Source: a virus
Lineage: Duplodnaviria > Caudoviricetes
Length of the DNA stretch: 64,000 bases
IMG/VR virus record: IMGVR_UViG_3300028048_000042
Strand: one strand, 5' to 3'
Part shown: positions 12,996 to 54,921 of the stretch, in pieces
Layout: each line of letters opens with the position of its first letter
Position numbering within the stretch: position 1 is the first letter of the stretch
Position numbers and translations under genes: made by a program
The notes under the pieces: generated by a model
What the model was told of the DNA's origin: nothing
What the model saw: only the letters and a program-made list of their open reading frames with translations
Databases searched by the model: none

Positions 12996-13024
12996 TTGAC
13001 AAATCTTTATATATGTGTAATAAT
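12996..13024 (+). promoter_or_regulatory. sigmaA-type promoter
   Basis: TTGACA-17-AATAAT with extended TG. Confidence 0.65.
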
Positions 13025-13075: not shown

Positions 13076-13882
13076 ATGTTGACGAAGGTAGCAGAAAAGA
13101 GATTTGCAAACGGTGTTGTATATGCATTGAGAACGGAAGATGGGTATCTGATTGAAACCACTGATACTTTCCTTCCTTACTATACTAAGGATGCTATTGG
13201 GAGAAAGCAGAATTTCCTTAATAACAAGGATTTGGGTTCGCGTAAAGAGCGTTGGATGATTGGAGTTTCAACCATGAGTGGCTGTTGTGTTGGTTGCCAA
13301 TTCTGCGCCACTGGTAATATGAAGAAATTCCGCAATTTGACGGCTGATGAAATTGTAGAACAGGTAGAGTTCATTATCGGCACTCACAATACCCCTGAGA
13401 CTCGTCAGAATCCCTCAGAATCGCTTGAATTTAAGATTAACTATACTCGTATGGGTGAACCGTTCCTCAACATTCAGAACGTGCGAGAAGCGATTACACG
13501 GCTTGATAAAGAATTGTCTGATACCAAAATCCACCATTATATCTCTACGATTGGAATTAAAGGTAGTGATTTTTCTTGGATTAAAGACAATATCACGTTG
13601 CAGATTTCTTTGCATAGCCTTGATGATGAACGTAGAAACAATTTGATTCCTATTAAAGGGAAAATGACAATTGAAGAGCTTGGTCAGATTCGTACCAAAT
13701 CTAATTTGAAAACAACTATCAATATGACATTGGTAGATGAAAAAGATTTTGACATTGATAAAATGAAGAAGTATTTTGACCCCAAATATTTCTTTGTAAA
13801 ACTGTCACCTATCAACGAAAACAATATTTCAAAGAAAAATCATATGGGGAAAGGAATCATTGAAGGGGTGAATATTGTTTGA
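13076..13882 (+). CDS. RlmN/Cfr-like radical SAM enzyme, N-terminal (large) part lacking the C-terminal AACGQL segment
   Basis: VSTMSGCCVGCQFCATG, RNLTADEIVEQ, MGEP, IST.G and ISLH motifs; start at ATG 13076 after aaggag SD. Confidence 0.85.
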   Translation: MLTKVAEKRFANGVVYALRTEDGYLIETTDTFLPYYTKDAIGRKQNFLNNKDLGSRKERWMIGVSTMSGCCVGCQFCATGNMKKFRNLTADEIVEQVEFIIGTHNTPETRQNPSESLEFKINYTRMGEPFLNIQNVREAITRLDKELSDTKIHHYISTIGIKGSDFSWIKDNITLQISLHSLDDERRNNLIPIKGKMTIEELGQIRTKSNLKTTINMTLVDEKDFDIDKMKKYFDPKYFFVKLSPINENNISKKNHMGKGIIEGVNIV

Positions 13883-14331
13883 CACCAAGAGAATTAAGAC
13901 AATTTGAGGAATTAAAAGCAGTTTATGATATTTTTTGTGGTGCGCACAAAAATGAAGAAGATACGGAAGAAGAAGATATGGATGATTTAGAAAAAGAATT
14001 AGAAGAGTTTTTTGACAATATGTATATACCTAAAGATAAAGATATGGAGGAAGAAGAAATGAGAACACCTAATGATGATTTTGATATGGACGATTTGATT
14101 ACAGGTGATGGAACGTCAAAATATGTAGTGGATTTGAAGGATGTGCTTGATTTTTATGATTTCCGAAAATCCAAAGGTTCAAATGTAACATCTCGTGATT
14201 GTTTGAAAATTTCCAACCAAGAGCTTGTACAGAATTTTGTTAAATTGACACGAAGAATGAGTCAGGAATATGGTAATGATAAAGAAGGATTTTTGAACGA
14301 CATCAAACGTGTAATTGAAATGGAAGGATGA
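13879..14331 (+). CDS. acidic hypothetical protein
   Basis: 150 aa ORF overlapping neighbours by 4 nt. Confidence 0.6.
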   Translation: MTPRELRQFEELKAVYDIFCGAHKNEEDTEEEDMDDLEKELEEFFDNMYIPKDKDMEEEEMRTPNDDFDMDDLITGDGTSKYVVDLKDVLDFYDFRKSKGSNVTSRDCLKISNQELVQNFVKLTRRMSQEYGNDKEGFLNDIKRVIEMEG

Positions 14332-14744
14332 CAAAAATGACTCTGAACGATGAATTTAAGAGTATTACTGCTAATCGAGCAAAAGAAAAAAAAGAATTGG
14401 ATTTTATTCTTGACTACATTGAATTTAAGACAAGTAAAGGGAATCATTGTACGCTTGGAGATTTTAAAATGAACCCCAATTTTAATCAAGAAACATTGCA
14501 ACTCGTGGCACAGGGAGCACGGCTTTTGCAGTTGCTTGGTGATGATTGGAAAGAAAAAATGGAAATGTTAAAAAATGTTAATACGCAGGGCGTTTGTGAT
14601 GGTTCAAGTGCAGGTTGTTTTGTAAGAAAACGTACTTCAGGCGGTGATGGCTGTCATGGTGGTTCAACGTATCTTGTGTGTGATAATGCAAAATATTGTG
14701 ATAAGAAAAATTGTGCTCTTAAACGGCGTGTAGAGGTGTATTAA
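14328..14744 (+). CDS. hypothetical protein with Cys/Gly-rich C-terminus
   Basis: CDGSSAGC...GGDGCHGG...CDNAKYCDKKNC. Confidence 0.65.
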   Translation: MTKMTLNDEFKSITANRAKEKKELDFILDYIEFKTSKGNHCTLGDFKMNPNFNQETLQLVAQGARLLQLLGDDWKEKMEMLKNVNTQGVCDGSSAGCFVRKRTSGGDGCHGGSTYLVCDNAKYCDKKNCALKRRVEVY

Positions 14745-14746
14745 TC

Positions 14747-15613
14747 ATGATTAAATTGGCTAAGTATTATTGTTCATTGAATGATGAAGAGCCGAAACGA
14801 ATAAAAGAACCGCAGATAAATGTATATGTACGTTTGCAGAATGTTTGCAATGCAGATTGCGACTTCTGCGAATTCTGTGGTCAGGCGAAAAAATTTGATG
14901 AAGAAAAATTCAAAGCCCTTTTAATTAAACTACATACTACCATCAAAATTAACAAATTATCATTTACAGGTGGAGAACCGACATTAGATTTTCCCTTATT
15001 CAAAAGGATGCTAAATTTTGTTAATGAATTAGACAAAGATATATTTACAGTAGTAAATACGAATGGTCTTCATCTAAAAGAATTAGCAGAGCTAGATATA
15101 AATAGTGTAGCTTTGTCGAGACATCATTATAATGATGAATTAAATCAATCTGTATTCAAAACGAAAGTGCCAACGAGTGAAGATATACGTTTATATAACA
15201 AAAAGAATACCAATTTACATTTATCGTGCAATTTGGTAAAAGATTATATAGACAGTCAAGAAGAAGTGTTAAACTATCTTGATTGGTGTGATAGTGTAAA
15301 TGCAAGGGATATAGGATTTGTAGGGTTGATGAAAACCAACGATTTTTGCAAAGAGCACTATATAGACTACAGTGTAGTAACAAAAAACCATAAACGAATT
15401 TGGAATAGTAAAACGTATAGTCGTCACGAAGGGAAAAATTTAATTTGTCGTTGTGGCAATTACGTATTCATGGGAGAAAATGGATTAGTTAATTTTTATT
15501 GTCGGCATTATATGTGCAATAACAACAGTGAAAGCACATTGGTGTATGACATTGATGAATTCAAGAATGGGTTTACAGGAGAGAACGTAGATGGTTGGAT
15601 TGTAAGCAGGTGA
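14747..15613 (+). CDS. radical SAM protein
   Basis: CNADCDFC, TGGEP and NTNG motifs. Confidence 0.9.
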   Translation: MIKLAKYYCSLNDEEPKRIKEPQINVYVRLQNVCNADCDFCEFCGQAKKFDEEKFKALLIKLHTTIKINKLSFTGGEPTLDFPLFKRMLNFVNELDKDIFTVVNTNGLHLKELAELDINSVALSRHHYNDELNQSVFKTKVPTSEDIRLYNKKNTNLHLSCNLVKDYIDSQEEVLNYLDWCDSVNARDIGFVGLMKTNDFCKEHYIDYSVVTKNHKRIWNSKTYSRHEGKNLICRCGNYVFMGENGLVNFYCRHYMCNNNSESTLVYDIDEFKNGFTGENVDGWIVSR

Positions 15614-17093: not shown

Positions 17094-17122
17094 TTGACAT
17101 TCATATGATTTCATGATATAAT
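17094..17122 (+). promoter_or_regulatory. sigmaA consensus promoter of the 42-aa AACGQL gene
   Basis: TTGACA-17-TATAAT with extended TG. Confidence 0.85.
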
Positions 17123-17154: not shown

Positions 17155-17283
17155 ATGGAAAATATTAAAAAGCAGTTGGAAGAAAATGGGTATGATTATG
17201 CGGTAGCAATTGCTACGGAAGCTGAAATTAAGAATGGAGCTGCTTGTGGTCAGCTTGCCATTATTGTTGAAAACGAAGAATAA
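17155..17283 (+). CDS. 42-aa protein equivalent to the C-terminal catalytic-Cys segment of RlmN/Cfr (not in ORF track)
   Basis: MENIKKQLEENGYDYAVAIATEAEIKNGAACGQLAIIVENEE; gaggtg SD; own promoter and terminator. Confidence 0.8.
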   Translation: MENIKKQLEENGYDYAVAIATEAEIKNGAACGQLAIIVENEE

Positions 17284-18186: not shown

Positions 18187-19020
18187 ATGTCTGCAAAAAT
18201 TTTATATGGAAAAGAGTACGCCGATAAGATTAAGCAAGAAGTAAAAGACTACATTAATAATAAAAATGTAGGACTTGCTGTTATTATTGTAGGTAGTGAC
18301 CCTGCTAGTCAAGTGTATGTTCGCAATAAAGCAAAAGCATGTGATGAAGTAGGTATTACAAGTACAACAATTGAATTGCCTGAGGAAAGTACAAAAGAAG
18401 CAATTATTGCTGAAATTCACGCATTGAATAATAATGATAATATTTCAGGTATTCTTGTACAGTTACCGTTACCAAAACATTTGCGTGAATTTGAACAGGA
18501 GATTTTAGATGAAATCTCCCCAAAAAAAGACGTAGATGGATTTTTGCCGATAAATGTTGGTAAACTTGGTATTGGCTTAGATTGTGTTGCTCCATGTACT
18601 CCATCAGGTGTTATTAAAATGCTTGAAATGGAAAATATAGATTTTAATGGCAAAAATGCTGTTGTGATTGGTCGTAGCAATATTGTTGGGAAGCCAATGG
18701 CAAATATGCTATTGAAGAAGAATTGCACCGTAACAATTTGTCATTCTCGTACACAGAATTTGAAGTATTATACAAAAAATGCTGATATTGTTGTGGTAGC
18801 AGTTGGTCAACCTAATTTTTTGACTGATGACATGATTAAGAAGGGTGCTATCGTTGTTGATGTGGGCATTAATCGTGTAGATGGCAAACTTGTTGGTGAC
18901 GTTAATTTTGAAACGGTTAAAGAAAAAGCAAGTATGATTACTCCTGTACCAAAAGGTGTCGGTGCATTAACAATTGCAATGCTTTTACATAACACAATGA
19001 TGTTGGATAAAAGAAAGTAA
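18187..19020 (+). CDS. folD: bifunctional methylenetetrahydrofolate dehydrogenase/cyclohydrolase
   Basis: YVRNK, GILVQLPLP, KDVDG, PCTP, GRSNIVGKP, VDVGINR and TPVPKGVG motifs. Confidence 0.97.
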   Translation: MSAKILYGKEYADKIKQEVKDYINNKNVGLAVIIVGSDPASQVYVRNKAKACDEVGITSTTIELPEESTKEAIIAEIHALNNNDNISGILVQLPLPKHLREFEQEILDEISPKKDVDGFLPINVGKLGIGLDCVAPCTPSGVIKMLEMENIDFNGKNAVVIGRSNIVGKPMANMLLKKNCTVTICHSRTQNLKYYTKNADIVVVAVGQPNFLTDDMIKKGAIVVDVGINRVDGKLVGDVNFETVKEKASMITPVPKGVGALTIAMLLHNTMMLDKRK

Positions 19021-22805: not shown

Positions 22806-24029
22806 ATGAGCGAAACGAAATTAAAGAATGGGCTTACAATCGTCACGACACCTTTTGACAGTGAATTTGTAACAATTGCTTTTTATGTAAATAAAGGTGC
22901 TAGAGATGAAAAAGACGATGAATTGGGTATTGCACATTTAGTAGAACATATGGTTTTCAAAGGTACGATTAATCGTGATAGAAAACAGATATGGGCAGAC
23001 ATTCAGAAAAACGGAGGAATACTGAATGCTTGTACCACAGAAGATTATACAATGTTTTTTGTTCATTGTTTGAAAGAATATATGGACGAAGCATTGGATG
23101 TTATTTATGAACTTGTATTTCTTAATACAATTCCTGAAGAAGAATTTGAGTTAGAAAAATCTGTTGTTGTTGAAGAAGTTAAAATGTATGAAAATCAGAT
23201 AGAACAACAGGCATTGGTCTTACTCAATAAGACGTTATATCCCAACAATAAAAACAGATGGGATGTTGGTAGTACACCTGAAAATGTTTCAAAAATTACA
23301 AGAAAACAGGTAATTGATTTTATTAATCGTAATTATATTCCTCAAAATATCACTTTATATGTAGCAGGTGATGTAGAACAAAAACATTTTGTTGATAAAA
23401 TGGAAGATTATCTGAGGGATTTTGAATTCATTAAATCTTCTCCTGAAATTCGTGCAAAGAATATAAAATTAAATTTTGATAATGCAAAAGAGTCAAAAGA
23501 TGGGTCACAGTCAGCAATGATTGCTTATTATCCAATGAATCTCAAAAATAATAAAGAAGTTATTATGGATGAAATTTCAAATTATATTTTGGGTGATGGA
23601 TTTAACAGTCGTTTCATGACAATTCGTGAAGACTTCGGTTATGTATATAGTCTTGAATGTGATACAGATTTTGATGGATTTGACGAAGAAGGTTATTCTT
23701 TAGTTTTTACTCAATTAAATAGTCAGAATATTCCAAAAACAAAAGAAGTAATTGAAGGTATTTTGGATGAATACTGCAAGGATGGAGTTTCGGATGAAGA
23801 ATTTGAATGTGCAGTAAACAATATAAAATTCAAAATTAGAAAAAGCTTTGAAACAGTTAATAAGACTAACGAAACAATTATTGGTAATAGACAAAAAGGA
23901 ATTCCTGAAACAGAAAAAGAATTGATGAAACTCCTTAATTCGATTACAAAAGCAGATTTTGATAAATTTATTAAAGACAAATTTAAAGACGTAAAGGTTA
24001 ATTATATTATTGTAGAACAAACGAGGTAG
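22806..24029 (+). CDS. M16 family zinc peptidase (insulinase/pitrilysin-like)
   Basis: GIAHLVEHMVFKGT (HxxEH), NACT and EKSVVVEE motifs. Confidence 0.93.
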   Translation: MSETKLKNGLTIVTTPFDSEFVTIAFYVNKGARDEKDDELGIAHLVEHMVFKGTINRDRKQIWADIQKNGGILNACTTEDYTMFFVHCLKEYMDEALDVIYELVFLNTIPEEEFELEKSVVVEEVKMYENQIEQQALVLLNKTLYPNNKNRWDVGSTPENVSKITRKQVIDFINRNYIPQNITLYVAGDVEQKHFVDKMEDYLRDFEFIKSSPEIRAKNIKLNFDNAKESKDGSQSAMIAYYPMNLKNNKEVIMDEISNYILGDGFNSRFMTIREDFGYVYSLECDTDFDGFDEEGYSLVFTQLNSQNIPKTKEVIEGILDEYCKDGVSDEEFECAVNNIKFKIRKSFETVNKTNETIIGNRQKGIPETEKELMKLLNSITKADFDKFIKDKFKDVKVNYIIVEQTR

Positions 24030-30022: not shown

Positions 30023-30292
30023 ATGAAAAGATTGGTTCGTTTGTCAGCATTAGATATGAAAAAATTAGAAGAAGATTATTTGAAGATGATTGAGAAGGAA
30101 AATCAATCATCTTCTCCTTCTAATAAACCAACATATAAATTAACTGACAAAGAAAAAATGAATGATGACGAAAAAACATTTTTCCCATCGACAGGGCTTT
30201 TAGTTGAATATGATGATAATCAAGTAGATACAAATCCTAGAGGTGGAATACCTGGGCCTTGGGCGGCTTCATTAAGATGGATTGGAAGATGA
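30023..30292 (+). CDS. hypothetical protein with MKRL leader
   Basis: MKRLVRLSA start, SD. Confidence 0.65.
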   Translation: MKRLVRLSALDMKKLEEDYLKMIEKENQSSSPSNKPTYKLTDKEKMNDDEKTFFPSTGLLVEYDDNQVDTNPRGGIPGPWAASLRWIGR

Positions 30293-30296
30293 TGAA

Positions 30297-31262
30297 ATGA
30301 GATTTATCAAATTCGATAAGAAAAATTATCGTATAAGATTTCATTCAAGGTGTAAGAATTACAAAATAGAATGGTATTTTGGTAATATATGTAATTCGCA
30401 TTGTTCGTATTGTTTTGATAAAGACAGTCGAAAAACGTGTTATCGAAATATGACGAAGGAAGAAACGGATAAAGTAGTTAAATTCATCAATGATTTACCT
30501 CCATTATATGAATTATTGTGTTTAGGTGGAGAACCATCTTGTTTTAAATATTTAGAATATGGGTTAGATAAGATAAAACATGGGTGTGCGATAACGATTT
30601 TAACAAATGGTAAAGATGAAGAATTTGTAAAAAGGATGTTAAAACGTGGAACAAAAAAGCAACCGATGCACGTTGATTTAACTGCACATTCTGAAGAATT
30701 TTTAAAAGACAAAAAAAACAATTTAGAACATTTGGGTAGATTAATCAATTACAAAAATAACAATCCATATAGTAGATTAGCATTTCGTATAATGTTAGAT
30801 GGAGAAAAAACAATGGAGTATAAAGAATTAGTAGAATTCTTATATAACAACATTGTTCGAAATCATAGTGGATTAGAATTACACGTATCATTTATTTATC
30901 GTGAAGGAACTCCGAAAGAATTTATCAATAATATTCTTACCACAACAAAGTTTGATGAAGAAATTGGTGAATTTTTAAAGAGTGAATTAATGGCGCAAAG
31001 GAGTTCGTCATTAAAGAACAATTGTCATTATGGCAAGAAGTGTCCTGTATTAGAACATTTTGCATATATAAGGTTGGATGGTAGATTGGACGCAAGACCT
31101 TCATGTACAGAGAATGACAGTGAATTAACACATAAGTCGATATTTGATGATGATTTTGATTTAGAAGAAGAAAAAGAAAACATCAAATGGATTTGTCATA
31201 AAAAACATGAGCAAAATTGGGGACTATGTGAGCACGTATATGGGCAACTGAGGGAAGGATAA
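30297..31262 (+). CDS. radical SAM protein (tandem paralog 1)
   Basis: CNSHCSYC, LGGEP and TNG motifs; C-terminal Cys cluster. Confidence 0.88.
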   Translation: MRFIKFDKKNYRIRFHSRCKNYKIEWYFGNICNSHCSYCFDKDSRKTCYRNMTKEETDKVVKFINDLPPLYELLCLGGEPSCFKYLEYGLDKIKHGCAITILTNGKDEEFVKRMLKRGTKKQPMHVDLTAHSEEFLKDKKNNLEHLGRLINYKNNNPYSRLAFRIMLDGEKTMEYKELVEFLYNNIVRNHSGLELHVSFIYREGTPKEFINNILTTTKFDEEIGEFLKSELMAQRSSSLKNNCHYGKKCPVLEHFAYIRLDGRLDARPSCTENDSELTHKSIFDDDFDLEEEKENIKWICHKKHEQNWGLCEHVYGQLREG

Positions 31263-31265
31263 AAT

Positions 31266-32213
31266 ATGTGGAAGAAATATACAAAAGATTTGCGTATAAA
31301 ATTCCATTCAAGAATGTCTTATTATCGCATTGAATGGTATTATGGCAATATTTGTAACCAAAGGTGTTCATATTGTTTAAACAATCATACGTATTCTGAT
31401 TATTATAAAAATGTAACGAAGGAACAAGTAGATAAAGTAGTTGATTTTATTAATAATTTTCCGAAACCGCTTTTTGATATACAATTTATTGGTGGAGAAC
31501 CATCTTGCTTTAAACATTTTTTCTATGCATTGGAAAGAATTAATCGCAGAGGAAGAATTAATGTCATGAGTAATGGTGCGGATGAAGAATTTATAGAAAA
31601 ATTACTTTCTATGGGTACAAGGAATAATCCTGTATTAATTTGCGTTTCGCCACATTATGAATATTATTTAAAAGACAAAGAAAAATTTTTAGAACATCTT
31701 GAACGAATAGCGAAGATGAATTTAAAATATGAATACGGCGACCTTGAATTCAATGTATTGTTAGACCAAGAAAAGACAAAAGAATACAAAGAATTAGTTG
31801 AATGGGTATATCATGTGGCACGAGGAAAATACAAAGTGTGTTTTGTTAGTTCTTATGTTCGCAGAACAAGGGATGCTAAAGAAGTAGTTAAGAATTATGC
31901 AATCACTTCAATTTTTGATAAAGAAACAAGGGATTACATTCGTGAAGACTTTGGTGGAGCAAGATTAGAGTATTTAAGACATAATAACCATTGTGGGGAA
32001 ATATGTCCTGTATTTGAAAATTATGTATTTATTAGAATGGATGGAAGATTGGAAGCTACAGGATGTGAGCAACCAATTATTTCAAATAAATCCATTTATG
32101 ATGATGACTTTGATTTAGAAGAAGAAAAACGTCAATTAACACAGGTTTGTAAATGTAAAAGGCAACCAAATAACGGAATGTGTGACCACGTACATGGATT
32201 ACCACCTGATTAA
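31266..32213 (+). CDS. radical SAM protein (tandem paralog 2)
   Basis: CNQRCSYC, IGGEP and SNG motifs; colinear with the upstream paralog. Confidence 0.88.
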   Translation: MWKKYTKDLRIKFHSRMSYYRIEWYYGNICNQRCSYCLNNHTYSDYYKNVTKEQVDKVVDFINNFPKPLFDIQFIGGEPSCFKHFFYALERINRRGRINVMSNGADEEFIEKLLSMGTRNNPVLICVSPHYEYYLKDKEKFLEHLERIAKMNLKYEYGDLEFNVLLDQEKTKEYKELVEWVYHVARGKYKVCFVSSYVRRTRDAKEVVKNYAITSIFDKETRDYIREDFGGARLEYLRHNNHCGEICPVFENYVFIRMDGRLEATGCEQPIISNKSIYDDDFDLEEEKRQLTQVCKCKRQPNNGMCDHVHGLPPD

Positions 32214-47898: not shown

Positions 47899-47996
47899 TT
47901 GATTTCTATATAAAATAAAAAAAAGACTAGAAATGTTTCTAGTCTTTTTTTTTGTCGTTTCTATATATAATATGTGTAAAAAAAAGGAAGATAAAC

Positions 47997-49259
47997 ATGG
48001 GAAAAAGTATATGCGTTGTCGGTTGTGGATATGTTGGTTTGCAATTGGCATTAGCTTTTCAAAAGCACATTCAGGTATATTGTGTAGATATTAACGAAGC
48101 AAGGATTGAAGCTTTCAAAAAAGGCATTGATAATACAGGTACAGTAGCTTTTTGTAATGCAGAAGAAGAATTTAAAAATATTAAATTTGAAACGGATATT
48201 AAGGCTGTGCCAACAAATATTGATACATTTATTGTATGTGTGCCAACTCCTGTTGATGAAACACATACGCCAAATTTAACTGCTACAAAAAGTGCTTCAA
48301 GTAGTGTGGCGAATGTCTTAAAAAAAGGTGATTTGGTTGTATTTGAATCGACAGTAGCTCCATTTACAACTGAAAAGATTTGTGTTCCTATTTTGGAAAA
48401 AGAATCAGGATTAAAATGTGGTGATGATTTTTGTGTAGGGTATTCACCTGAACGTTTACAACCTGGCACAAAAGGTAAAGGAATTTTGGAGATTGTAAAA
48501 CTTGTATCAGGTTACGATAAAACATCATTAGAACGAGTGTATAAGTTGTATAATACTATTTTGCCTGATGATATGTTGTGTTGTTGCAATACAATGGCTG
48601 AAGCAGAATTGTCAAAAATAATGGAGAACGTTAATCGTGATGTAAATATTGCATTAATGAATTATTTTAAGTTGGTTTGCGATAGATACGGTATTGATTA
48701 TGAAAATGTATTTAATGCCGCCGCCACAAAATTCAATTTTAATCAAAATGTTACGTATGGTATGGTTGGTGGACATTGTATTGGTGTTGACCCATATTAT
48801 TTAATTGATTTTTGTCAGAAAGACAAAGACTTTTATGATGAACAAAAAGACATTTTGCTAACTGCAAGAAGAATTAATGAATATATGCCTTATTATTTAG
48901 CAAAGAAAGTTCACAAAGCACTTGGCGAAACAGGTGAAGGAAAAGTAACAATTGTTGGTTTTACATTTAAAGAGTATTGCAGTGATACACGCAATACTAA
49001 AGCATATGATTTATATAAACACTTGCTTGATTTCGGATATGATGTTGCTATTTATGACCCTAAAGCAGATGCAACCGAAGCAAAAATTTTGTATAATGTT
49101 GATATTTTGCAAGAAGAAATGCCGAATAACAATGATTGCATTGTATTTACTTTGAATGATATTGAATTAGTTGATTTTGATGTAGATAAAAAATTGGCTA
49201 ATGGTGGAGTAATTGTTGATTTTAAAAATGTTTTAACAAAGAAAAAAAGTATTAATTAA
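47997..49259 (+). CDS. UDP-N-acetylhexosamine 6-dehydrogenase (WbpO/WecC/TviB family)
   Basis: GCGYVG Rossmann motif, CVPTP, ESTV, YSPER, AELSK..EN and GGHCIGVDPYYL. Confidence 0.93.
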   Translation: MGKSICVVGCGYVGLQLALAFQKHIQVYCVDINEARIEAFKKGIDNTGTVAFCNAEEEFKNIKFETDIKAVPTNIDTFIVCVPTPVDETHTPNLTATKSASSSVANVLKKGDLVVFESTVAPFTTEKICVPILEKESGLKCGDDFCVGYSPERLQPGTKGKGILEIVKLVSGYDKTSLERVYKLYNTILPDDMLCCCNTMAEAELSKIMENVNRDVNIALMNYFKLVCDRYGIDYENVFNAAATKFNFNQNVTYGMVGGHCIGVDPYYLIDFCQKDKDFYDEQKDILLTARRINEYMPYYLAKKVHKALGETGEGKVTIVGFTFKEYCSDTRNTKAYDLYKHLLDFGYDVAIYDPKADATEAKILYNVDILQEEMPNNNDCIVFTLNDIELVDFDVDKKLANGGVIVDFKNVLTKKKSIN

Positions 49260-52648: not shown

Positions 52649-53821
52649 ATGAAAAGACTTGCTAGTACAGAATTGACAGTTGTACACAGTCGTGAAGATA
52701 TTCCATCAACGGAAATGAAAAGTCTTTTTCTTGCAGGCCCTACTCCAAGAAAAAAGCATAATCTTGAATGGCGTTCGGAAGCAATTAAAATTCTTAAAGA
52801 ACTAGGCTATAATGGTATTGTATATACACCAACTGAACGTAAAGGTGAATTTGACCGTAATGTTCTGAAAGAGCAGTGTGCATGGGAATACAAGACAATG
52901 ATGGCTTGTGATGCTATTGTTTTTTGGATTCCTCGACAAAAACGACAAGATTTTGAAATGATTGCATTAACTACTAATGTGGAATTTGGTCGTTTCTTTG
53001 AGTCAAATAAAATGTTCTGTGGTGCTCCTAATGACGCAAAATCAATCGAATATTTGAAAATTATTTCTGAAAATAGATATGAATGGACAAATACTTTGCG
53101 AGATACACTTAAACGAGCTGTAGATTATCTTGGTGAAGGTGTATATCGTGAGGGAGCAGAGTGTTTAGTTCCTAAACATATTTTTGAATCTGCTCAATTT
53201 CAAAATTGGTATAAATCTCATAAGCAGAATGGAAATCAATTAACTGATTTTAAGACTTTGTTTGAATTCATTGCTCCTTATTCAAAGAAAATGTTTATGA
53301 CGATTTTTAAACCTGATGTGTTCATTGAAAAAGAAAATCGCACAAAAAATAATGAATTTGTAGTTGCAAGAACAGATGTATCATATATCTGTGCTTACCA
53401 TAAGACCAAAAAGGAAACTAAAATTCTTTTATGTGAAGAATTTAGAAGTCCTGTTGTAAATGATGATTCAATGGTTTATGAACTTGTGGGCGGTAGTAGT
53501 GATAATCCAAATGACGATGAATTGCAAGTTGCCGCAAATGAGTTTGAAGAAGAAACAGGCGTGAAATTAAAAAAGAGCAGATTCAAGAAGGTTGATATTA
53601 AACAGTCTGCAGCAACGCTTTGCTCTCATAGGATTACACTTTACTCTGTTGAATTAACGGATGAAGAAATTAAACATTTTGAGGAAGATAAAGATATTCA
53701 CGGAGTGACGGAAGCAACAGAACAGATTCATCTTCATGTCATGACTTTGGAAGATGCATTAAAGAAAGTAGATTGGACAAACGCAGGTATGATTTTTGCC
53801 GCAATGAAAGGAAAAGAATGA
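52649..53821 (+). CDS. nucleoside 2-deoxyribosyltransferase-like / Nudix hydrolase fusion
   Basis: LFLAGPTPR..WR, Q..WE, D.IVFWIPR, TT.VEFG (NDT-like); EEFRSPV..YELVGG...AANEFEEETG (Nudix box). Confidence 0.85.
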   Translation: MKRLASTELTVVHSREDIPSTEMKSLFLAGPTPRKKHNLEWRSEAIKILKELGYNGIVYTPTERKGEFDRNVLKEQCAWEYKTMMACDAIVFWIPRQKRQDFEMIALTTNVEFGRFFESNKMFCGAPNDAKSIEYLKIISENRYEWTNTLRDTLKRAVDYLGEGVYREGAECLVPKHIFESAQFQNWYKSHKQNGNQLTDFKTLFEFIAPYSKKMFMTIFKPDVFIEKENRTKNNEFVVARTDVSYICAYHKTKKETKILLCEEFRSPVVNDDSMVYELVGGSSDNPNDDELQVAANEFEEETGVKLKKSRFKKVDIKQSAATLCSHRITLYSVELTDEEIKHFEEDKDIHGVTEATEQIHLHVMTLEDALKKVDWTNAGMIFAAMKGKE

Positions 53822-54921
53822 GTAATTATTTAAGAAAAGACATTTCTACAATTTTTGTTATGTTGGGTCATGAATGTAATTTACAATGTAAATATTGTTT
53901 GCAACATGACGTAGTAAATATTGCTTTGGATAAGCAGGTTAATCCTGATATTTATAATTTTATTTGTGAAACAGCTCGTAATCAGTCAACGCCGTTAGGA
54001 ATTCAGTTCTATGGTGGTGAACCATTAGTATTTTGGAATAAAATTGTGGAAATTGTAACAGAATTGGAAAGTAGAAATACAGGTAATAATATTTATTTCT
54101 CTATGATTACAAACGGTAAGTTGTTTGATGAAGAAAAGGTAAATTTTGTTAATGAACACAATATTGGTGTTTGCATTAGTTGGGATGGTAGAAATTCTAA
54201 CATTACACGAGGATATAATGTGTTTGAAACAAATAAAGAAAACATTTTTAAGATTAAAAACTTTTCCATATCAGGTGTAATGTCTTCTTATAATTATATT
54301 GGTGATTATTTGGAAGATGCAATTAATTTGAATCTTGATTACGTTAAAAATTATAATGGGCATACCATTCATGTAAACGTAGATGATTTGCTTGATATTA
54401 ATCTTCCAAATCCTGATTTAAAAGACTTTGATTATAATAAAGCATATGAACAAATGGAAGCATTATGCGATGAATATTATAATTATGTAAAGAATGGCGA
54501 ACGGTTAGAAGTAATTAAGGTTGAATATTTTGAAAGAAAAATCAATCAAATTCGAGGTGCAATTACTAGCAAACATTATCAACCATTGAGAGATAGATGT
54601 GGTAATGGTTGTGAAGTTATCAATATGGATTTGAATGGCAATCTGTACAAATGTCATAATACAGATGCTAAAGTCGGTACAATTTATGACAATGGATTTG
54701 ATGTTTTAAAACGAGTTTTTGATTTGGATATGGTAAATCATACAGCAGAAAAGTGCAATGAATGTCCTGTACAAATTATGTGTATGAATGGTTGTCCATT
54801 AGTAAAAGAAGCACCAAGGGAAGAGTTCTACTGCGCCATGATTAATATTATGAATTATCCTATAATGAAATTGGTTACTAGGTTGGGTGACGGAGTTGAA
54901 CGGAAAGATAACGAAAACTAA
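53818..54921 (+). CDS. radical SAM/SPASM domain peptide maturase
   Basis: CNLQCKYC, FYGGEP, ITNG and ISWDG motifs; SPASM CG.G...G.LY.CH...C..C....C..GC....C. Confidence 0.9.
   Translation: MSNYLRKDISTIFVMLGHECNLQCKYCLQHDVVNIALDKQVNPDIYNFICETARNQSTPLGIQFYGGEPLVFWNKIVEIVTELESRNTGNNIYFSMITNGKLFDEEKVNFVNEHNIGVCISWDGRNSNITRGYNVFETNKENIFKIKNFSISGVMSSYNYIGDYLEDAINLNLDYVKNYNGHTIHVNVDDLLDINLPNPDLKDFDYNKAYEQMEALCDEYYNYVKNGERLEVIKVEYFERKINQIRGAITSKHYQPLRDRCGNGCEVINMDLNGNLYKCHNTDAKVGTIYDNGFDVLKRVFDLDMVNHTAEKCNECPVQIMCMNGCPLVKEAPREEFYCAMINIMNYPIMKLVTRLGDGVERKDNEN

Follow-up and report, generated by a model that had tools for sequence, protein, structure and literature searches.

How does a radical SAM enzyme of the RlmN type finish its reaction when the resolving cysteine is replaced by glycine, and what is the role of a separately encoded peptide of 42 residues that carries its catalytic cysteine? 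This question is raised by a 64,000-nucleotide stretch of viral DNA (the window), which looks like phage DNA from its portal gene. The sequence-only reading of the locus had proposed that the peptide is over-expressed and may be consumed by permanent attachment to RNA or another nucleic acid. By sequence, the large subunit and the peptide are the two parts of one conserved split RlmN-type enzyme without resolving cysteine. The large-subunit gene has the following features:

12996..13024, + strand: promoter match of sigma70/sigmaA type for the large-subunit gene, 11/12, extended -10 (consensus match only)
13076..13882, + strand: large subunit, 268 aa, RlmN-type radical SAM barrel (profile, fold model, alignments)
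13154..13156, + strand: Glu27, equivalent of RlmN E105, kept in 114/116 (alignment)
13262..13264, + strand: Gly63 (GGA) at the position of RlmN C118, the resolving cysteine (alignments)
13283..13306, + strand: CxxxCxxC cluster motif, Cys70/74/77, plus non-conserved Cys71 (sequence)
13433..13450, + strand: two residues diagnostic of the C118-less clade, Lys120 and Arg125 (motif xRMGEP, with the Arg standing at RlmN G177)
13799..13801, + strand: Lys242 at the RlmN N307 position, diagnostic of the C118-less clade

An AGGAG ribosome site precedes the open reading frame start at 13076. The best matches of the large subunit by family profile, PDB sequence and predicted fold (model pLDDT 92) are RlmN and Cfr. 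RlmN (E. coli PDB 3RFA, 4PL1, 5HR6/5HR7; S. thermophilus 6FZ6; TIGR00048) is the closest system; the fold resembles 6FZ6 with Z 21.6 and rmsd 2.5 over 230 aligned residues. Shared with RlmN are the cluster motif and the AACGQL methyl-carrier loop, together with equivalents of E105, MGEP, S211, S233/H235 and N312, all retained in the large subunit by alignment. Unlike RlmN, the system consists of two polypeptides, has Gly for C118, Arg for G177, Lys for N307 and Glu for G348, and lacks both the N-terminal RNA-binding domain and R344. Profile scores lie below the cut-offs (TIGR00048, 80.4 against 290 bits; TIGR04432, 57.7 against 550), in part from missing termini. The N-terminal HhH2 RNA-binding domain is absent, the model aligning from residue 62-65 of RlmN/Cfr. 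At the other end, the chain stops about 20 residues past the last barrel strand, without the C-terminal helix-strand-Cys loop, and a C-terminal CGQ motif occurs in the large subunit of 0 of 119 close homologs. Likeness to Cfr (PDB 9P0P) extends to the fold (Z 16.3, rmsd 2.9, 206 aligned) and probably to methyl-cysteine radical chemistry, but the C105 equivalent is missing, the RNA-contact residues S103, S151, N288 and R327 are replaced and the enzyme is split.

Within the stretch IGVSTMSGC-C-VG-C-QF-C, single-sequence and profile alignments both place Gly63 on E. coli RlmN C118, gap-free to the cluster motif. The multiple alignment mis-registers the strand before this motif, setting E105 on Asp30, and the profile alignment, which gives Glu27, was used. 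The replacement of the C118 equivalent by Gly, first proposed from this one sequence, holds across the family: the residue is Gly in 119/119 close homologs and in 113/116 sequences of a wider alignment. The extra Cys noted in the cluster motif is indeed present (Cys71, codon 13286-13288), but it has no family-level role, residue 71 being Pro in 96 and Cys in 19 of the 119 close homologs. Cys71 was rejected as a replacement base because the position is mostly Pro, as was Cys at position 66, which is found in 70/116 only, so is not invariant, and is Thr in this phage. No invariant Cys able to replace C118 was found in the family alignments of either chain. Since the resolving Cys is absent and has no invariant substitute, the reaction must end otherwise than in RlmN.

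The peptide gene lies downstream on the same strand:

17094..17122, + strand: peptide-gene promoter match, 12/12, TTGACA-17-TATAAT, extended -10
17155..17283, + strand: 42-aa peptide, corresponding to the last helix, strand and AACGQL loop of RlmN
17224-17226, + strand: Glu24 of the peptide, invariant, candidate replacement base
17245-17247, + strand: Cys31 of the peptide, equivalent of RlmN C355
17290..17334, strand not assigned: 20-pair hairpin terminator past the peptide gene

The gene is served by a GAGGTG ribosome site. Its product supplies in trans the methyl-carrier Cys (C355), which is invariant in 39 aligned peptides. The whole peptide corresponds to the enzyme's own C-terminus in fused relatives and is about 70% conserved from end to end, with no variable core. 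The link to RlmN rests on these fused relatives, as the peptide profile by itself did not retrieve RlmN in the PDB. Inside the split clade no fusion of barrel and peptide was found; the longer peptide-bearing proteins are four fusions to other domains, which is weak evidence. The peptide loop contains no Arg, RlmN R344/Cfr R327 being replaced, and the charges (large subunit +4, peptide -6; mean across peptides -4.7) leave the pair nearly neutral to acidic.

Modelling of the complex places the peptide as the missing helix, strand and loop of the large subunit, with a score of 0.84 against 0.02 for the best control (the score mark is reached by 58/80 solved and 2/110 mismatched pairs). The runs share at least 98% of contacts, with partner pLDDT at least 74. 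In the models, peptide strand 13-17 is predicted to pair with large-subunit strand 239-243, and the peptide touches Glu27 and residues 124-126, making about 155 contacts with one barrel strand included. The pass may stem from likeness to, or memory of, solved RlmN.

The two genes are firmly associated: in 109/112 loci drawn from viruses and genomes the peptide gene is a near neighbour of the large gene, and in 72/124 distinct loci it is at most 70 nt away. The peptide gene is single copy per genome, and the pair is also carried by phage isolates of Bacteroides, Moorella, Vibrio, Yersinia and Pectobacterium. A rejoining of the two genes at the RNA level was considered and rejected: no joints were present in two RNA-library assemblies, and the gene order is reversed in two loci (L130 and L142), where the peptide gene lies upstream. 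Over-expression of the peptide, as earlier supposed, is not borne out. The large gene also has an 11/12 promoter, and a strong promoter of the peptide's own (11 or 12 of 12) occurs in just 2/29 loci scanned. Both genes are partly covered by contigs from a single bovine gut study; these RNA-library contigs cannot rank the genes by expression and may hold DNA. In one homolog (P0128), the large subunit is split by an intein with a LAGLIDADG domain just past the cluster motif. Neither the ESM Atlas nor PHROGs yielded a named family for the system, and the literature searched held no description of the C118-less or split clade; a small subfamily of unknown function is mentioned in PMC2836569, though not in a form identifiable with the C118-less clade.

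Trees resolve the distant relatives into canonical RlmN, short two-cysteine enzymes without N-terminal domain, and one C118-less clade, supported at 0.999, and at 88.5/83 in IQ-TREE after removal of five diagnostic columns. This clade comprises single-chain enzymes that keep C355 (at least 570 GTDB matches in bacteria and archaea), the split group, and a group lacking both cysteines and E105. The split arose solely inside it. By parsimony, C118 was probably lost while the enzyme was still one chain, before the split, with moderate clade support in the stricter tree. E105 was lost only in the group without carrier loop, which supports S-methylation of the peptide. Single-chain C118-less enzymes stand beside a TrxB-like flavoprotein without CxxC in 72/80 loci and beside an isochorismatase-family cysteine hydrolase in 55/80, an operon that suggests a small-molecule pathway with an electron donor.

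Several features of these relatives were observed in passing. The widespread operon of hydrolase, flavoprotein and single-chain enzyme (L177-L256; for example L202:4383-6900 and L243:1609-4140) has no curated family, and hydrolase and single-chain C118-less enzyme are fused in one protein (P0194). A sister group from CPR bacteria and small archaea (L257-L270) lacks E105, C118 and the whole C355 loop and carries the motif KQMGDP; its gene always follows a pyruvate-kinase-barrel-like gene and an unknown Ser/Gly-rich gene, often with a protein kinase as well, and no peptide was found for this group in three genomes tested. The short two-cysteine family (L148-L176, L116, L119-L121, L123), likewise uncharacterised, occurs in prophages, phages and NAD-salvage operons.

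Loss of C118 is accompanied by a distinctive set of residues. A Glu seven residues ahead of the carrier Cys (here Glu24) is present in 130/132 distinct C118-less loops, compared with 0/46 of those with C118, and fused C118-less relatives have the identical loop, Glu included. Every sampled C118-less sequence that keeps C355 has Arg for RlmN G177, Lys for N307, and Lys or Arg for Cfr S151; these residues occur in almost no sequence with C118, and Arg125 and Lys242 in none of those sampled. The pattern indicates that the C118-less site is rebuilt with new conserved charged residues rather than merely broken; as C118-less enzymes share one origin, these co-occurring residues represent one evolutionary event, not independent trials. 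RlmN and Cfr cannot dispense with the resolving Cys, which sits on the face of the ring away from C355 and, as C118, serves there as general base (PMC9692996). Glu24, Glu27 or a water bound by Arg125 are candidates for the base role of C118. Residues 327-330 of Cfr, which neighbour the Glu position, approach the target base (10.1101/2025.09.18.677109). From its place on the C355 loop, however, a Glu may fall short of the opposite ring face.

The substrate is unlikely to be the one that RlmN recognizes. The N-terminal HhH2 domain anchors RNA in Cfr and RlmN (10.64898/2026.02.27.707579), and Cfr R327 binds the target ribose. RNA as the target, as had been suggested for this locus, finds no support: the N-terminal RNA-binding domain and R344 are missing, the peptide is acidic, and the gene context consists instead of NAD salvage and hydrolase/reductase operons. 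Of the split lineages, 7/38 have at least two NAD-salvage genes no more than 6 kb away, as do 5/28 of the short two-Cys lineages but 0/67 of the lineages that are fused or cysteine-less (Fisher p 6e-4), and in several loci of Woesearchaeota, Nanoarchaeota, Parcubacteria and Bacilli the pair is located inside pncB-pncA-nadE-NMNAT-nrtR operons. Since the two-cysteine sisters have this NAD context too, the two groups may carry out a similar reaction and complete it differently. Among split-system phage records, 5/16 encode a nicotinate/nicotinamide phosphoribosyltransferase (PF04095). Phage NAD-salvage genes adjoin several homologs; the paper describing the phage NAD reconstitution pathways NARP1/NARP2, which occur in 5.4% of phages, mentions no radical SAM or RlmN-like component (10.1101/2024.02.11.579819). 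The NAD link is partial: no NAD genes, including Namat/Nampt, Adps and Nmnat of NARP1/NARP2, lie within the 64-kb window.

From the split, the residue pattern, the clade structure and the gene context, all directly observed, we infer the chemistry, the substrate and turnover. The favoured reading, held tentatively and with slightly less than even confidence, is a heterodimeric radical methyl-transfer enzyme that would turn over on a small anionic nucleotide. The two genes would encode one heterodimeric RlmN-type (class A) radical SAM enzyme, with the peptide predicted to dock as the missing last helix, strand and loop. To judge from RlmN and the retained residues, Glu27 would aid SAM-dependent methylation of peptide Cys31, a second SAM would give the 5'-deoxyadenosyl radical and then a Cys-S-CH2 radical, and the latter would add to an aromatic carbon of the substrate. 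The cross-link would be resolved without C118, by proton transfer to Glu24, Glu27 or Arg125-held water, or with no base where the ring is an electron-poor pyridinium; with such an acceptor the radical adduct may be acidic enough without a cysteine base, a stable thioether being equally possible. The product would be a C-methylated small anionic nucleotide, formed with turnover. Its precursor would most likely belong to the NAD pathway (nicotinate or nicotinamide mononucleotide, NAD or ADP-ribose), with Lys120, Arg125 and Lys242 as its putative anchors. The enzyme would work like RlmN up to the methylene radical, but it should not be classed as RlmN or Cfr, because the resolving Cys and the RNA-binding domain are both missing. 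To our knowledge, every class A radical SAM methylase characterised so far depends on two cysteines and modifies RNA.

The main alternative is that the reaction stops at the cross-link. A covalent peptide adduct of any kind is possible but doubtful. The same doubt attaches to the proposal that the C118-less enzyme halts there, so that the peptide would end as a genetically encoded tag or carrier, covalently bound via Cys-S-CH2 to a nucleotide, either an NAD-pathway molecule or, with lower probability, a nucleic-acid base (RNA or DNA). It is also rather unlikely that the system is a radical SAM peptide ligase derived from RlmN through splitting off of its own catalytic loop. The specific form in which the peptide is a carrier, with a stable peptide-S-CH2-metabolite thioether formed on a small nucleotide by radical addition and one-electron oxidation, is unlikely; the adduct would be tailored or released by a second radical SAM enzyme or methyltransferase, or be the end product. 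In keeping with a carrier, the resolving Cys is absent, C118A and C105A variants remain cross-linked, and a Cfr C105A structure has been captured in the cross-linked state (10.64898/2026.02.27.707579). Confinement of the split to the C118-less clade also fits a consumed peptide, as do a four-gene cassette of large subunit, radical SAM enzyme, methyltransferase and peptide, and a tandem two-core peptide in Vibrio phage D479. However, hundreds of single-chain relatives would then be consumed whole, the modelled peptide is integrated into the barrel through its many contacts, and its gene is single copy, mostly co-transcribed and, in two natural proteins, fused to a methyltransferase. A trapped product as a consequence of C118 loss is doubted because each permanent cross-link would consume a 310-residue iron-sulfur enzyme. 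Single-use proteins do exist, and loop splitting could have evolved to cheapen a single-use reaction. The earlier proposal of a consumable peptide thus survives in part: without resolving Cys an adduct is possible, but the loss of C118 is older than the split, common to hundreds of single-chain enzymes and accompanied by new conserved residues.

Less probable again, and indeed very unlikely, is that the peptide itself is the product, with Cys31 S-methylated or cross-linked and matured by partner enzymes in the manner of split borosins. Like these (10.1101/2021.12.24.474128), a precedent for splitting enzyme and precursor, the system pairs a methylating enzyme that has fused relatives with a separately encoded small partner, here beside a radical SAM enzyme and a methyltransferase. 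Unlike them, it has an unrelated fold and chemistry, and its small partner corresponds to the catalytic loop of the enzyme itself, end to end the C-terminus of fused relatives in which the same loop and Glu are kept; the new basic residues, moreover, point to an added anionic ligand. In favour of the peptide as product, the next fold neighbour after RlmN and Cfr is the peptide-acting pyruvate formate-lyase activating enzyme (3C8F, 3CB8; Z 11.7, rmsd 3.7, 202 aligned), whose radical SAM barrel likewise accommodates a loop from another polypeptide. That enzyme generates a glycyl radical on a large protein and has no known methyl-carrier cysteine.

That the peptide is permanently linked to rRNA, tRNA or DNA of the host, to aid takeover or counter defence, is highly improbable: cross-linking of RlmN C118 mutants to RNA, the strong promoter and terminator of the peptide in this genome, and the phage or prophage origin of many loci agree with it, but the pair is nearly neutral to acidic without RNA-binding domain or R344, sits in ordinary NAD operons on bacterial and archaeal chromosomes, rarely has a strong peptide promoter, and lost C118 before the split. 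An RNA adenosine methylase (m2A/m8A, on tRNA or short RNA) with a replacement base has equally slight prospects, since the closest fold and sequence matches to RlmN and Cfr and the retained catalytic equivalents are set against lost RNA-contact features, the retention of canonical RlmN by bacteria carrying the pair, the absence of tRNA genes from the window and a context that points to small molecules.

The system belongs to a large, apparently uncharacterised branch in phages, bacteria and archaea in which the carrier Cys is kept and the resolving Cys lost, and one lineage of which appears to place the carrier Cys on an exchangeable 42-residue peptide. Either outcome would be new chemistry: C118-free resolution on a small nucleotide, or a natural radical peptide-ligation enzyme. 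If the favoured reading is true, a modified NAD-pathway metabolite may play into conflicts over NAD between phage and host. With the enzyme split, the debated role of C118 also becomes open to direct test: independently of the iron-sulfur protein, the carrier loop can be made synthetically, methylated in advance, labelled or mutated.

Between the two genes lies a probable accessory enzyme:

14747..15613, + strand: second radical SAM gene, 288 aa, probable accessory

In 12/38 lineages a member of its family lies no more than 6 kb from the split system; a second radical SAM enzyme of any kind is present near the pair in 18/38, often together with a small methyltransferase, which may point to further processing of a product attached to the peptide. 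For one type of second radical SAM, 50/50 loci carry the large subunit; a viral search with the gene of this window gave no match. In the closest viral relative (81% identity; L001:7628-8552), the second radical SAM gene is in two pieces, directly before the peptide gene. A 138-aa open reading frame with a Cys/Gly-rich C-terminus and no family match (window 14328-14744) lies directly upstream of the second radical SAM gene.

Two proteins bear the peptide in natural fusion to a methyltransferase; it stands at the C-terminus of the cassette's class I methyltransferase (L129:6449-8540; P0124, P0125). A NADAR gene is found 4 kb from the fusion of L129, and another NADAR domain near the pair in L002. 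The tandem peptide of Vibrio phage D479 (L117:5860-6084) is one open reading frame with two copies of the Cys-loop module. The window contains three more radical SAM genes (30282-32213, 53773-54921; five in all), two of them in tandem, as well as FolD, an M16 peptidase, UDP-glucose dehydrogenase and a nucleoside deoxyribosyltransferase-like domain (18187-19020, 22806-24029, 47952-49259 and 52649-53821, respectively). Elsewhere, the pair is adjoined by TerC/TerD genes in Yersinia phage P778 (L115:5789-8160), by thymidylate synthase in Moorella phage MTATph1 (L114:5965-6603) and by ThyX in Prevotella prophages (L053:5143-5970).
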